From: Candidatus Onthoplasma sp.
GTDB taxonomy: Bacteria; Bacillota; Clostridia; Christensenellales; UBA1242
NCBI GenBank assembly: GCA_045126575.1
Contig: JBGVOQ010000019.1
Location: 39,876 to 103,875 of the forward strand
Length of the DNA: 64,000 nucleotides
Direction: 5' to 3'
Part shown: positions 41,638 to 48,349 of the stretch, piece after piece
How the letters are laid out: each line of letters starts with the position of its first letter
How positions within the stretch are numbered: the stretch's first letter is position 1
Program-made: the position numbers and the translations under genes
The notes under the pieces: model-generated
Told to the model about the DNA's origin: nothing
Databases searched by the model: none
What the model saw: only the letters and a program-made list of their open reading frames with translations

Positions 41638-42168
41638 ATGAAATACACTAGCACTATAAAGGATAGCAAAGAATATGGACTGGCAAAAAATATTCTATAT
41701 AATCTAGTTCTGTCAATATTTATTACTATAGCGTTATCCGTATTAGTGGTTTATATTTTTGGATTAAGGCTCGATGTTGTGCTAAGCGACAGTATGAGTC
41801 CAGCCTTTTACAAGGACGATATAGTAGTAGTGCGTGCTTATGACGAGTACAACGAAGGAGATGTTATTGAATATCAACTAAGTGATATTAGCAAACCTGT
41901 TACACACAGAATTATAAAGAAGATGGGTTCGGGCAAAAATGCTACATTTATCACAAAAGGCGATGCCAATGACCCTAGCGATGGTGCTATTCCTTATAGT
42001 TGTATAAAGGGTAAAGTAATCGCAGTTATAGAAGACGGCAACGTACTATACGAATTTATTAAAAACAATTATTTTCTATTATTAGATATTTTACTAGGTG
42101 TTTGGGTGTTGACCGCTACGCTTAACGGTGAGTCGGAAATACGCAAACATAACATTGCTAAAGTTTAA
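41638..42168 (+). CDS. sipW: Signal peptidase I, SipW / archaeal-ER type (S26B)
   Basis: 176 aa. SDSMSP (Ser nucleophile), VTHRI (His) and TKGDAND motifs, with N- and C-terminal TM helices. Confidence 0.85.
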   Translation: MKYTSTIKDSKEYGLAKNILYNLVLSIFITIALSVLVVYIFGLRLDVVLSDSMSPAFYKDDIVVVRAYDEYNEGDVIEYQLSDISKPVTHRIIKKMGSGKNATFITKGDANDPSDGAIPYSCIKGKVIAVIEDGNVLYEFIKNNYFLLLDILLGVWVLTATLNGESEIRKHNIAKV

Positions 42169-42181
42169 AAGGGGGAATTTT

Positions 42182-44866
42182 GTGCGTTTAGGTAAAATTG
42201 CTAAATTTAATATGATTTTAGCCATACTTTTATGTATGGCTTTTGTCGTAAATTTAGGTTCTACCTGGGCGGCGGGTCAATATAAGTTTAAGGCGCAAAG
42301 CATTAACACTATACAAAGTGATGTTGTGCAAAACAATGTGTATACAGACCATGCTTACGTACAAGGTAGCCAAGGTAAATACATATATAGCCCAGGAATT
42401 TATAACAATCAACTAAGTATTAACTATGGCGTTAGAGAAAATTATGACCTTCTTATAAGATTTAGTGCAACATATACTAACACAAATCACAAAGCGGCTG
42501 ACTTTTCATTAAATTTTGCTAATCGTGATATGTGGTTGCTTGATATTGGTTCTACCAATGGGTTAAAAGTAAATGCTGATCAAACAATAATTGACTCAAC
42601 ACAAACCTATTATGATTTGACCTCGGACTCTAATACAATTACGGGTATTATGTATTATATGGGACACTTATCAGATTCTGGCACAATACCTATTATAAGT
42701 GGAGTTAATTTCTATACATCACCAAACAATTCGTTTGAATATATAGGTGATACATTAACTATAACCCTAACACCTGAGTATGTAAAAAGTGGCGAATACA
42801 ATGCTGACCATATATTTGGTGTGACTAAAGATGGGTTTGCACCTAATCAAACTGTTTTTACAAATTGGATTTCATACATGAGCGGAGCATATGCAACCGC
42901 ACAAAATGCGCAATATATGATTTACAATGCGTATGTGTATGACAAAGCAGCAACAAAGGATATGTCGCTACAATATCCTAAGGATAGTTCGGTAATTAAG
43001 ACAGATGGTTCTGGTTTGGTTAACCCAGGTGCAACTTATCCAATGTATGCAAATACCGCATATCGCTACACTGTAAGTAGTGGATCAAGAAGTTACGAGG
43101 CGCTAACTGCTGGAAATAGATATTATGGCGGATTGGGTGTGCACGTTATACCTAATTCGTCAGCAACTTCTAACAAACTTGTTACCGTTGGTATAACTAT
43201 TAGATATGTGTGGCAAAAAGATGGCAACATTGCCGGATTTTCACCATCTGGAATTGTGTCATTCAAAACATCTAGTGATATAACAACAATAACAAAAGAT
43301 GAAACAAATTATTATTACTACAAATCTCAAATAACTAGTCCAACATATATTAATGTGTTAGATTACATAATGTTAACCGCTGAAAACTACGAAACAATCG
43401 TAAAGGGCGGATATAGCCTAATACTTAATTATATTAGTGTTTCGCTAGAAACTGATACAAGCAAAATGGCAGTTGGTGATGGCGGTGAAACATGGTCAAG
43501 CCAAGCAACTGAAAGTTATACTATTAACAATTCTACAAACAGTTCACAAGTGCTAGCACGTGTGAGTGATGTGTTAGCTTCGGAAAAAGCCTATGAAGCA
43601 GACATAAGTATAACTAACAATTCAAATTCTATACTAAAAGTTAAATCATTTAGCGTTAAAGGTTATTTGTGGTATGGCGAATATACTACCACAAGCGAAG
43701 ATGATGGTTCTGGTGGAACCAATGTGGTAGAACACTTTGTTGAAATGCCACTTGGTGGGGCTGACAAATCAAAATGTTACTTGCGTCCTAGTTATTTAAC
43801 GGACCAAGACTCGAGCAAAAGCACGCTAAGTGCAAATAATATTTGGAAATTTGATTCAAGTTTGTGGAGTGTGTCATATTCTAACAATACATATACATTT
43901 AGTAACAACGCTGGCGCTGCGTATATTCCTAGTGGTTATACAATGACGCTTATTAGCGGAGTTACAATTCCACAAACAACTATTTGTCAAAGTGCAACCG
44001 TTGCAAATGATTTTTGGTGTAGCATTGAAGTTGTTGGTGTGACTACCGAAAGTAGTGCTCCAACCTATACAAACTTAACATCTACTGTTGGAGTTGAAAC
44101 GATAGTGGAAGGCTATTACAGTGAAATGACATCATCAAATCCTGGAAAGATTTATATTAGGAATAACACAAATCAGGAAATTACTAAATTGACACTATCA
44201 AATAGTATTAATTCCAATATGCCAATTATATATAGTTTGGCAAGCGGAACGGGTTTGGCACGTGATAGATTAGGAAGTATAATAAGTTCGGTTACAATAA
44301 CTAATCATTTAAATAAAACTTCATCAACTTCGCTAATATCTGATACAATATCAATCAAACCAAACGAAACCGTGTTGGCTTACACAATCAAACCAACGCA
44401 AAGTGCTGTTATATACGATTACAAGGTAACTGCAACACTTAATGGCGTTGAATACAATGACGATATTGATTTGGGGTATAATGTTGAGGCAGGCAAGGGC
44501 GAGATTATCAACAATAGCGCTAAATTCTATGAATTTAGATTGCGTAGTGCAACAAAGTTATCTAATTTAGTTAACTCTAGTGACTTTGTTGAAAAACAAG
44601 ATGGTACTACATACTACTATTATTACAAAGGCGTAATTTGTCCAGGTCAATGCATTACTATATTTGATGGTGAGTTTGCGCATAATGTAACAATAGGTAC
44701 AAGCGATAAAATAGAACATGATGATTCGTGGGATGTTAGCCGCTACACGGCAGGTAACTACGAAATATGGAATTTGGCTGAAGATGACGCATGGTTAAGT
44801 GCTATGAAAGCGCCATTTACAGAGCCAACAACTGAAGAGCGACAAAACGCAGTTAAAGTAAATTAA
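42182..44866 (+). CDS. Large secreted protein with a TasA-like N-terminal module and a long C-terminal extension (predicted SipW substrate)
   Basis: GTG start at 42182 preceded by GGGGGA. Signal region RLGKIAKFNMILAILLCMAFVVNLGSTWAAGQYK (compare TasA GGGTWAAFND). The ITLTPEYVK strand motif lies near residue 210. Confidence 0.7.
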   Translation: MRLGKIAKFNMILAILLCMAFVVNLGSTWAAGQYKFKAQSINTIQSDVVQNNVYTDHAYVQGSQGKYIYSPGIYNNQLSINYGVRENYDLLIRFSATYTNTNHKAADFSLNFANRDMWLLDIGSTNGLKVNADQTIIDSTQTYYDLTSDSNTITGIMYYMGHLSDSGTIPIISGVNFYTSPNNSFEYIGDTLTITLTPEYVKSGEYNADHIFGVTKDGFAPNQTVFTNWISYMSGAYATAQNAQYMIYNAYVYDKAATKDMSLQYPKDSSVIKTDGSGLVNPGATYPMYANTAYRYTVSSGSRSYEALTAGNRYYGGLGVHVIPNSSATSNKLVTVGITIRYVWQKDGNIAGFSPSGIVSFKTSSDITTITKDETNYYYYKSQITSPTYINVLDYIMLTAENYETIVKGGYSLILNYISVSLETDTSKMAVGDGGETWSSQATESYTINNSTNSSQVLARVSDVLASEKAYEADISITNNSNSILKVKSFSVKGYLWYGEYTTTSEDDGSGGTNVVEHFVEMPLGGADKSKCYLRPSYLTDQDSSKSTLSANNIWKFDSSLWSVSYSNNTYTFSNNAGAAYIPSGYTMTLISGVTIPQTTICQSATVANDFWCSIEVVGVTTESSAPTYTNLTSTVGVETIVEGYYSEMTSSNPGKIYIRNNTNQEITKLTLSNSINSNMPIIYSLASGTGLARDRLGSIISSVTITNHLNKTSSTSLISDTISIKPNETVLAYTIKPTQSAVIYDYKVTATLNGVEYNDDIDLGYNVEAGKGEIINNSAKFYEFRLRSATKLSNLVNSSDFVEKQDGTTYYYYYKGVICPGQCITIFDGEFAHNVTIGTSDKIEHDDSWDVSRYTAGNYEIWNLAEDDAWLSAMKAPFTEPTTEERQNAVKVN

Positions 44867-44883
44867 TAAAGGGGAGGAAGAAT

Positions 44884-47400: not shown

Positions 47401-47541
47401 TATAGTAGAAAGTAAACGAACAGTGTAAAAATGTTAGTTGTGCCGTCGTTACGCAGCTGCAGTTGTACATATTTGTTCGCTTTCGTTAAATTTTAACTTG
47501 TTTAAAATTTAAACAATAAAAGTTTATAAAAGGGGAAAAAT

Positions 47542-48276
47542 ATGACAAAGATTAATAAAGTGGGCAAATCAACATTTGTTATTGCTATTTTATCATTCTT
47601 GCTAGTAGCTGTATTGGCATTTGGCGGCACTTATGCGTATTTTAGTGCTAAAACCGAGCCAGCTGGCGGAACAGTAACTATGGGTGCTTTGTATGTATAC
47701 CTTAAGGATGGTTCAAATATTCTTACAGGCGATACTGCATTAGGTGAAATCGAGATAGCTCAACCTAACCAAGAAATTCTTAACAAAACATACACTGTTG
47801 ATATGAAGGAAACTAATACATCAACCATTAGTGCGTTTGTTAGAGTTAAGATTACCGCTGAATTAAGTTTACCAATGAACACAGAAAAAACAGCATATAC
47901 TGGCAATACTGGTGGCGATTCACATATCACACCAGCAACTATATTCGCAATCACTTCTAATAGTTCTAGTTGGTACTATAATGCAGCTGATGGATATACA
48001 TACTATGTTGCAGATAAGAAAGATGGTGCAAGCTCTAATGTTGCTGAATTAACAGATTCAGCTGAATTACCAGTTAGCATTATTGTTAACAAGGATGTAG
48101 GTGATGATGGTAGCACATTCTTTATGGGCGCAACTGGTACTTTTGCAATTGTAGTAGAAGCTATCCAAGCAGATTTCCTAGATGATAACACATCTACAAA
48201 TAAAGCATACACTGTTACCCAAATTGCTGAAAAGTGGGCTAAGGTGGTAGATAAAGACTACACTCCAGCAGGCTAA
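47542..48276 (+). CDS. TasA/camelysin-superfamily protein with a SipW-type signal peptide (predicted major subunit)
   Basis: 244 aa. FVIAILSFLLVAVLAFGGTYAYFSAKTE is a near-consensus SipW-cognate signal. C-terminal FAIVVEAIQ. It has its own promoter, leader and terminator. Confidence 0.8.
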   Translation: MTKINKVGKSTFVIAILSFLLVAVLAFGGTYAYFSAKTEPAGGTVTMGALYVYLKDGSNILTGDTALGEIEIAQPNQEILNKTYTVDMKETNTSTISAFVRVKITAELSLPMNTEKTAYTGNTGGDSHITPATIFAITSNSSSWYYNAADGYTYYVADKKDGASSNVAELTDSAELPVSIIVNKDVGDDGSTFFMGATGTFAIVVEAIQADFLDDNTSTNKAYTVTQIAEKWAKVVDKDYTPAG

Positions 48277-48320
48277 TATATTAATTTATGGATTGGATAA
48301 ATCTATTTAACGACAAAGGA

Positions 48321-48349
48321 AGGAACTAATATCAATTAGTTCTTTTTTT
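48321..48349 (+). terminator. Terminator after the 244-aa TasA-like gene
   Basis: GAACTAAT-ATCA-ATTAGTTC followed by T7. Confidence 0.8.

Follow-up and report, generated by a model that had tools for sequence, protein, structure and literature searches.

In a 64,000-nt stretch of contig JBGVOQ010000019.1 from Candidatus Onthoplasma sp. (Christensenellales), analyzed here in its full length and referred to as the window, a gene for a SipW-type signal peptidase is followed by the genes for five proteins, p912, p222, p204, p340 and p244, and preceded by that for a giant predicted lipoprotein, p2799. We favour, with moderate confidence, the reading that this locus encodes a Sec- and SipW-dependent surface fibre, whose several pilin-like subunits come together outside the cell and which is anchored in the membrane. 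An earlier interpretation made from the DNA letters alone (the sequence-only reading) had proposed a multi-subunit, membrane-anchored fibre built from five TasA-superfamily paralogues. Its six open reading frames (ORFs) were confirmed at the coordinates given there in the list of window ORFs with translations, and all motif strings it quoted were found in the translations. The genes, in window coordinates, are:

33144..41543, plus strand: p2799, predicted lipoprotein (ORF call, 2,799 aa)
41638..42168, plus strand: sipW, peptidase (176 aa)
42128-44866, plus strand: p912 as called by the ORF finder (912 aa)
42182..44866, plus strand: p912, corrected gene (894 aa from GTG 42182)
44884..45552, plus strand: p222 (222 aa)
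45565..46179, plus strand: p204 (204 aa)
46199..47221, plus strand: p340 (340 aa)
47542..48276, plus strand: p244 (244 aa)

Peptidase, export signals and candidate subunits

Judged by its sequence, the product of 41638..42168 is a signal peptidase I of the S26B/SipW class, i.e. of the endoplasmic reticulum (ER)/archaeal type, and not an equivalog of B. subtilis SipW. In a search with NCBIfam hidden Markov models (HMMs) it passes TIGR02228 (sigpep_I_arch) with 75.7 bits against a cut-off of 51.85, and it reaches 55 bits on the Bacillus SipW equivalog model NF046067, the cut-off of which is 190. ER-type signal peptidases (SPases) are recognized by SxSMxP, a conserved histidine and GDxN/D between N- and C-terminal transmembrane (TM) helices. 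The translation contains Ser52 (SDSMSP), His90 (VTHRI) and Asp109/112 (GDAND; TKGDAND), flanked by hydrophobic TM helices at the N- and C-terminus, and the earlier assignment to the SipW type is thus borne out by model and motifs alike. With 47-66% identity among orthologues, the peptidase gene is the most conserved of the set.

The precursors p912, p222, p204 and p244 all start with a basic and then hydrophobic signal that ends in a G-x-T-x-[AS]-aromatic junction: NLGSTWA↓AGQYKF in p912, SIGYTYA↓YFSS in p222, FGQTNS↓WLVADD in p204 and AFGGTYA↓YFSAKTE in p244 (arrows mark the junction). The translations contain the four signal junctions quoted before, NLGSTWAAGQYK, SIGYTYAYFSSTHQ, LFGQTNSWLVADD and AFGGTYAYFSAKTE, as well as the late-strand strings ITLTPEYVK, ITLTGEAVQ, FTLHLFIEG, ITVHAEI and FAIVVEAIQ. 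When a regular expression for the junction, formulated post hoc, was run over residues 1-80 of every six-frame ORF with at least 60 aa in the 64-kb window, matches were obtained only for the four ORFs next to sipW. The junction is kept in all four families in orthologues from five other loci. On TIGR04088 (cognate_SipW, cut-off 19 bits), p244 passes with 19.7 bits and p222 stays just under the cut-off with 16.9 bits, whereas p912, p204 and p340 have no match, so that the HMM search proposed with the sequence-only reading came out as hoped for p244 and almost so for p222 but not for the remaining three.

Sequence relationships extend beyond the signals. p244 and p222 are clearly paralogous, aligning over their full length both in BLASTP (25% identity, E 2e-9) and in hhalign (98.8%, P ~1e-17). 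p204 is probably a third, divergent pilin-like paralogue: over 170 columns, hhalign gives it 88-91% with the p244 family and 86% with the p222 family, with P 3e-6 to 5e-6 against the p244 and p222 profiles, and among the window ORFs its HMM finds p222 at E 8.7e-6. Searches of PDB sequences with p244, p222, p2799 and the profiles of p244 and p912 returned nothing relevant, only chance matches to synapsin and HSP90. An AlphaFold2 model of p244 is a beta-sandwich with a predicted local distance difference test (pLDDT) of 87.6, and the mature N-terminus (first ~20 residues; ~33-45 at low pLDDT) is unstructured in this monomer model. Foldseek against the PDB places the chaperone-usher pilins FimF, CfaB and FimG at the top (probability 0.9, E 0.007-0.05), and the TasA-like archaeal bundling pilin AbpA (7UEG) ranks 8th (E 0.043). 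In an alignment of 56 p244 sequences, P75, R101, G187 and Q209 are invariant in the mature part.

The gene for p912 required a correction. The ORF finder takes the first GTG, and the resulting 912-aa call therefore overlaps sipW (41 nt from GTG 42128). AAAGGGGG as a strong ribosome-binding site (RBS) sits 7 nt ahead of GTG 42182, and every alignment with homologues begins at query residue 18-20. The ORF reported before is thus present at its coordinates, but translation most likely starts at GTG 42182 and yields 894 aa. The protein consists of a signal peptide, a pilin-like N-terminal domain of ~200 aa (p912N) and ~680 aa of lineage-specific sequence. A combined profile of p244, p222 and p204 aligns with the body of p912N, signal excluded, at 73-82% in hhalign (P 1e-5 to 3e-5); six other p912 segments served as controls and gave P 0.1-0.6, and p2799 segments, likewise used as controls, gave 0.004 or worse. 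The alignments of p912N and of the p340 ectodomain are collinear and include the late strand, with P values 3-4 orders better than the controls. This is suggestive of p912N belonging, by its sequence, to the same superfamily as p244, p222 and p204. The p912 family is small, with only 34 representative homologues in 1.84e9 proteins. No match to TIGR04088, Pfam or NCBIfam was obtained for p912, and a PDB search with its profile returned nothing relevant. Further TasA-like repeats inside p912 were considered and rejected. The one weak signal is a collinear match of residues ~420-640 (window 43439-44101) to the p204 profile (P 1e-3, 106 columns), which may stem from another, degenerate domain of the pilin-like type or may be noise.

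The model of p340 features a TM helix (176-206) and an all-beta ectodomain (213-339), both with pLDDT 70-88, behind a disordered N-terminal part (residues 1-174, pLDDT <50). Basic residues precede the helix, which argues for an N-in, C-out topology. On this model, p340 is a membrane protein of the bitopic type, and its ectodomain forms a beta-sandwich. The signal peptides of p244 and p222 can be aligned with the TM segment of p340, in which, however, the cleavage junction is missing; p340 thus resembles a pilin-like precursor that escapes cleavage. Against the combined profile the ectodomain yields 30-67% in hhalign (P 5e-5 to 6e-4) and against p912N 62%, suggestive at the sequence level of a place in the pilin-like superfamily; Foldseek against the PDB found only generic Ig-like sandwiches (E >=0.016), and there was no match to curated HMM models. 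In the p340 alignment, the N/P/Q-rich low-complexity head is highly variable, an N-C directly outside the membrane is almost invariant, and residues ~111-170 on the cytoplasmic side (window 46529-46708) form a conserved motif, SAxEKFERGSRxLSHMxGG...RRKVGGVVLD...IQDAN. This motif hints at a partner inside the cell or at regulation of the putative anchor.

Transcription, conservation and genomic surroundings

From sipW to p340 the genes are spaced by 12-19 nt as in a tight operon, and a gap of 320 nt separates p340 from p244. The following elements were found in this gap and behind p244:

47252..47312, plus strand: hairpin and U-tract, intrinsic-terminator-like, ends the sipW-p340 operon (dG -22.7 kcal/mol, z -6.3)
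47372..47400, plus strand: promoter of p244, sigma-70-type, TTGACT-17-TATAAT (11/12 consensus matches)
47401..47541, plus strand: 5' leader of the p244 mRNA, ~140 nt, conserved, with the strong RBS AAAGGGGAAAA
48313..48351, plus strand: hairpin and U-run, intrinsic-terminator-like, after p244 (dG -14.2 kcal/mol, z -4.7)

None of 200 shuffled sequences folds as well as the hairpin at 47252..47312, and the same result (0/200) was obtained for that at 48313..48351. Both promoter hexamers are kept in the window and in the related loci L005, L006, L007 and L010. With a terminator after p340, a conserved promoter and a terminator of its own, p244 forms a separate monocistronic unit, just as the sequence-only reading had it. 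The leader contains the conserved blocks AGAAAGTAAACGAA, GTCGTTA and TTCTCTTTCGTTAAA (window, L005, L006, L007, L010 ~9700-10000), and a stem is predicted in which AGAAAG..AAACGAA pairs with TTCGTT..CTTTC, joining the 5' end of the transcript to a site ~80 nt downstream. In RNAalifold this stem comprises 11 pairs, two of which show compensatory changes, at a weak energy. The leader matches no Rfam family, nor did a scan of the entire window give any Rfam match; the role of the leader could be one of stabilisation or regulation.

The related loci came from a genome scan with the p244 alignment, whereas SipW as a single query sequence had yielded no relative. The order p2799-sipW-p912-p222-p204-p340-gap-p244 recurs in L005, L006, L007, L010, L034 and L036/L037 at 33-65% identity of the gene set across these contigs, so that the co-conservation in related genomes for which the sequence-only reading had proposed a test is indeed found. 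The more distant relative L002 (5887-10001) carries a partial set from which p204 is absent, and genes for a dUTPase, rsmI and a Fic-domain protein lie between the p340-like and p244-like genes. This insertion marks the gene for the putative major subunit as a separable module. Genes resembling p244 are more widespread than the set and are also found singly or in convergent pairs without a sipW in the surrounding 10 kb. Such extra genes are found in L008 and L013-L033 (e.g. L017 9989-11458, L021 9962-11657, L024, L030 and L031) and carry the near-invariant signal VA[MLV][LM]AFGGTYA[YW]F[TS]; several form convergent pairs ~300 bp apart, and single metagenome-assembled genomes harbour at least two copies. 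One SipW might serve them as alternative major subunits. Its own conserved promoter, the strong RBS and the additional stand-alone copies in the genomes make p244 the candidate major (shaft) subunit.

Directly upstream of sipW, a homologue of p2799 with 2,700-2,900 aa is present in L002, L005, L006, L007, L010, L034 and L036. These homologues are 28-30% identical, and because they hold the same position in related loci, p2799 may belong functionally to the system. Its signal (...IIFFGC) is of the lipoprotein type and not that of a SipW-type substrate. We found no Pfam, NCBIfam or PDB match for p2799, and a pilin-like domain hidden in it was rejected, the best P in 78 segment comparisons being 0.004.

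Apart from that, the cluster is surrounded by housekeeping genes (holB, ricT-like, methyltransferase, rsmI, dnaB/dnaI-like). Genes for a sortase, type IV pilus, usher, PilD, platform or assembly ATPase were not present among the annotated ORFs around the locus. The seven locus proteins were also inspected for LPXTG, HExxH and twin-arginine motifs, none of which is present. A sortase-dependent pilus was accordingly rejected (no LPXTG, no sortase), as were a metalloprotease of the camelysin type (no HExxH) and twin-arginine translocation (Tat; no RR motif). About 10 kb upstream of p2799, at window 18856-23069 on the minus strand, three glycosyltransferase genes (GT2, GT1/GT4 and DXD sugar-binding type) are accompanied by a gene for a 507-aa protein without Pfam match. 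A link of this block to surface polysaccharide or to glycosylation of S/T/N-rich surface proteins is possible.

A putative membrane-anchored fibre and its alternatives

By analogy with characterized and proposed systems, the fibre could be built as follows. SipW would cleave the four precursors p912, p222, p204 and p244 after Sec export, and the N-terminal segments thus freed would complement the fold of adjacent subunits as donor strands, in the manner of TasA, BsaA and the archaeal tafi system. p244 would form the shaft, and p222 and p204 are candidate minor or adapter subunits. p912 is a candidate for the distal tip or the initiator, a role it would take through its pilin-like N-terminal domain, and it is possibly an adhesin. 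p340, a candidate membrane anchor or fibre terminator, would stay uncleaved in the membrane, where its ectodomain would tie the fibre to the cell and/or end its growth, similar to TafF of the tafi system. With respect to polarity, two options are conceivable: either p340 accepts the strand of the last subunit, as proposed for TafF, or its tethered segment behind the TM helix donates. We consider a division of labour among the subunits plausible.

How far the proteins can be tied to TasA itself is a matter of their N-termini. The B. subtilis TasA sequence was verified by the identity of its residues 28-261 with PDB 8AUR, from which it follows that mature TasA begins after GGGTWA↓AFND. The junctions at the locus are of the same type. 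On the Pfam model of the TasA/camelysin family, PF12389 (Peptidase_M73), p244 of the window scores 17.9 bits, below the gathering threshold (GA) of 22.5, and the other four proteins do not match. Among the members of the p244 family, 43 of 56 match at E <=0.01 and eight reach 24.8-28 bits. In hhalign, the families give 12-24% against TasA, with similarity limited to the signal and the first strand. As far as sequences go, the locus proteins appear to combine the export/donor-strand module of TasA with a pilin-like fold class, the link to TasA being limited to signal and first strand. The claim of five TasA-superfamily paralogues is thus retained in part: membership in one set is certain for p244 and p222, probable for p204 and suggestive for p912N and p340, but homology to the body of TasA was not detected. 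The Foldseek comparison suggested alongside had a similarly mixed outcome, with weak matches to donor-strand pilins and 7UEG and without TasA among the 50 matches listed.

Several observations weigh against the fibre reading. The PF12389 matches of the eight members inspected lie within positions 5-79 of the 196 of the HMM, i.e. signal and first strand. Against mature TasA the P values are 0.01-0.07, and the alignment is locally best at the C-terminal E-A-x-Q strand. TasA (5OF1, 8AUR) is not among the 50 best Foldseek matches of p244, and every Foldseek match has E >0.001 and a TM-score of 0.2-0.3. The p340 model, made from only 11 sequences, is shallow and has a mean pLDDT of 57.6, and the similarity of p340 becomes weak (19-30%) once the TM segment is left out. 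None of 30 p204-family members and none of six p912-family members matches TIGR04088, and the signals can also be read as ordinary sites for SPase I of the A-x-A type (e.g. AVLA↓F in p244). The absence of p204 from L002 implies that not every component is essential and that p204 is dispensable. Finally, polymerisation, donor-strand exchange, SipW cleavage and subunit roles are predictions made here from genes and models.

The alternative that survives best is a matrix in the style of TasA/TapA, in which p244 alone forms homopolymeric fibres and the other proteins are accessory and not stoichiometric parts of one linear polymer. They could serve as a nucleator or chaperone like TapA and CapP, as a peptidase-assisting membrane protein like TafG or as a large matrix-binding protein like BsaC. 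We regard this as unlikely but worth serious attention: known bacterial SipW systems work in this way (PMC10151520, PMC13082335, 10.1101/2024.11.04.621531), BsaB as a paralogue of TasA is not incorporated in BsaA polymers, p244-like genes occur in many related genomes without the accessory set within 10 kb, L002 does without p204, and p912N and p340 resemble the pilin-like families only to a suggestive degree. However, p222 and p204 match p244 over their full length in signal, junction and layout of the body, the p912N and p340 ectodomain alignments are collinear with the same body motifs and far better than the controls, and no DUF5305/TafG, TapA or vWA signature was found with Pfam and NCBIfam.

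It is improbable, in our opinion, that no fibre is made at all and that SipW is a leader peptidase for unrelated surface proteins acting together with p2799, for example in the maturation of a surface layer or adhesin. The common motifs would then reflect only the export signal and a beta-rich composition. Such a role would agree with p2799 always being located directly upstream, with the likeness to TasA in curated models being confined to the signal region and with Foldseek matches that are not significant. It is at odds with the full-length homology of p222 both to p244 (98.8%) and to p204, which hence extends beyond the signal, with the p912N alignments, from which the signal peptide was excluded, and with the resemblance of the p244 fold to donor-strand pilins; p2799, moreover, has a lipoprotein signal and no pilin-like segment.

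A set of type IV pilin-like proteins or pseudopilins is close to negligible as an explanation, since the weak NCBIfam matches of p204 to ComGF (E 0.09; 4/30 members of the p204 family, best E 0.022) and to the archaellin N-terminus (arch_flag_Nterm, E 0.35) lie far under the cut-offs (13 bits vs 80) and involve the hydrophobic helix only, a G/A↓F...E5 class III junction is absent, no prepilin peptidase, assembly ATPase or platform gene occurs in the window and the adjacent peptidase is of the S26B type.

Relation to SipW-dependent fibres and to the archaeal tafi system

The sequence-only reading had considered a division of labour as undescribed for TasA systems. This part has to be given up in view of TapA/TasA (PMC10151520), CapP/TasA/CalY (PMC13082335), the bsa operon and, above all, tafi: the tafi model and a published heteropolymer proposal for BsaA/TasA operons with multiple paralogues mean that the concept is not new. 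TasA-family sequences have been described as extremely divergent (10.1101/2024.11.04.621531), and donor-strand exchange has been documented for TasA (PMC9674648). The B. subtilis tapA-sipW-tasA and B. cereus sipW-tasA-capP-calY operons share with the locus a SipW-class peptidase, the junction type and accessory minor proteins (PMC9674648, PMC10151520, PMC13082335), and also the N-terminal donor-strand module, putative at the locus, and a C-terminal E-A-x-Q strand (FSFEATQ in TasA, VVEAIQA in p244). The locus differs by more paralogues and by a membrane-embedded component, and homologues of TapA and CapP were not found there.

Closer in lineage is the bsa operon of Clostridium perfringens, which like the Onthoplasma locus belongs to the Clostridia, starts with sipW and encodes at least two paralogues (of the TasA family in bsa, TasA-like in signal and first strand at the locus) and a large extra secreted protein (PMC7395162; 10.1101/2024.11.04.621531). 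For sipW-bsaA-bsaB-bsaC, the multiple paralogues per operon have been taken to suggest heteropolymers, and the BsaA fibres are anchored in the membrane and not in peptidoglycan (10.1101/2024.11.04.621531). p912, in contrast, is devoid of a vWA domain, neither a sortase nor an LPXTG paralogue lies next to it, and the locus encodes four proteins with SipW signals plus a dedicated TM protein, with the major subunit being transcribed separately. An isopeptide lock as in BsaA was rejected for p244, as the mature part of the 56-sequence alignment contains no invariant or near-invariant Asn, Glu or Lys (N-E-K triad).

Our literature searches retrieved no description of this lineage-specific bacterial set, of an 894-aa pilin-headed protein, of a type-II membrane protein that combines a pilin-like ectodomain with a conserved motif in its cytoplasmic part, of a link between such a cluster and a 2,800-aa lipoprotein or of a major subunit that is transcribed separately and has a conserved leader.

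The closest architecture is that of the tat-fimbriae (tafi) of haloarchaea and of the related Sec-dependent, taf-like clusters of Thermococcales and Archaeoglobales, a likeness that concerns gene architecture. In the tafi model, the peptidase TafD is accompanied by the tip TafC, the adapter TafE, the major pilin TafA and the membrane anchor TafF, and TafC is composed of an N-terminal pilin-like domain and an extra domain (PMC11821415, PMC12337348). There are clear differences. The tafi system is archaeal and uses Tat/DUF1102 signals, whereas the locus is bacterial with Sec-type signals and a G-x-T-x-A junction. TafD has a C-terminal immunoglobulin (Ig) domain that is missing from the small two-TM SipW of the locus, and counterparts of the TafG/DUF5305 partner and of the regulator TafB were not found at the locus. 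TafF carries its pilin-like domain at the N-terminus and its TM segments at the C-terminus, while p340 is arranged in reverse, N-in with the TM helix followed by the ectodomain, and the putative tip of the locus is far larger with 894 aa.

Common to both are a dedicated S26B peptidase encoded in the cluster, several small pilin-like paralogues, a larger protein with an N-terminal pilin-like domain and an extra domain as the proposed tip or initiator and, as the proposed anchor or terminator, a membrane protein that carries such a domain, the pilin-like nature of the domains being suggestive in p912 and p340. Sortase, usher and ATPase are absent from both, in both the peptidase diverges more slowly than the structural genes, and CfaB-type pilins are among the closest solved folds. 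We put forward, as a tentative extension and with clearly less confidence than the fibre as such, that the locus represents tafi in a bacterial version. A gut bacterium of the monoderm type would thus make an ordered, heteropolymeric pilus, anchored in the membrane, for which it would need only Sec export, one SipW-type peptidase and donor-strand exchange, with p912 as tip or initiator and p340 setting polarity and anchorage, perhaps together with p2799. If this holds true, fibres of the TasA type would have been elaborated in some Clostridia beyond a loose biofilm matrix into organelles resembling pili, in which a tip, an adapter, a shaft and a membrane anchor are combined. This organisation has been shown for Gram-negative chaperone-usher and for sortase pili but so far only proposed for archaeal tafi. 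The poorly known, uncultured Christensenellales of the animal gut (Candidatus Onthoplasma and relatives) would thereby gain a candidate organelle for adhesion or aggregation, and the compact set of six genes, or seven with the lipoprotein, lends itself to heterologous expression. The parallels between the locus and tafi would then also strengthen the case for an ancient class of S26B-peptidase-dependent pili common to bacteria and archaea.

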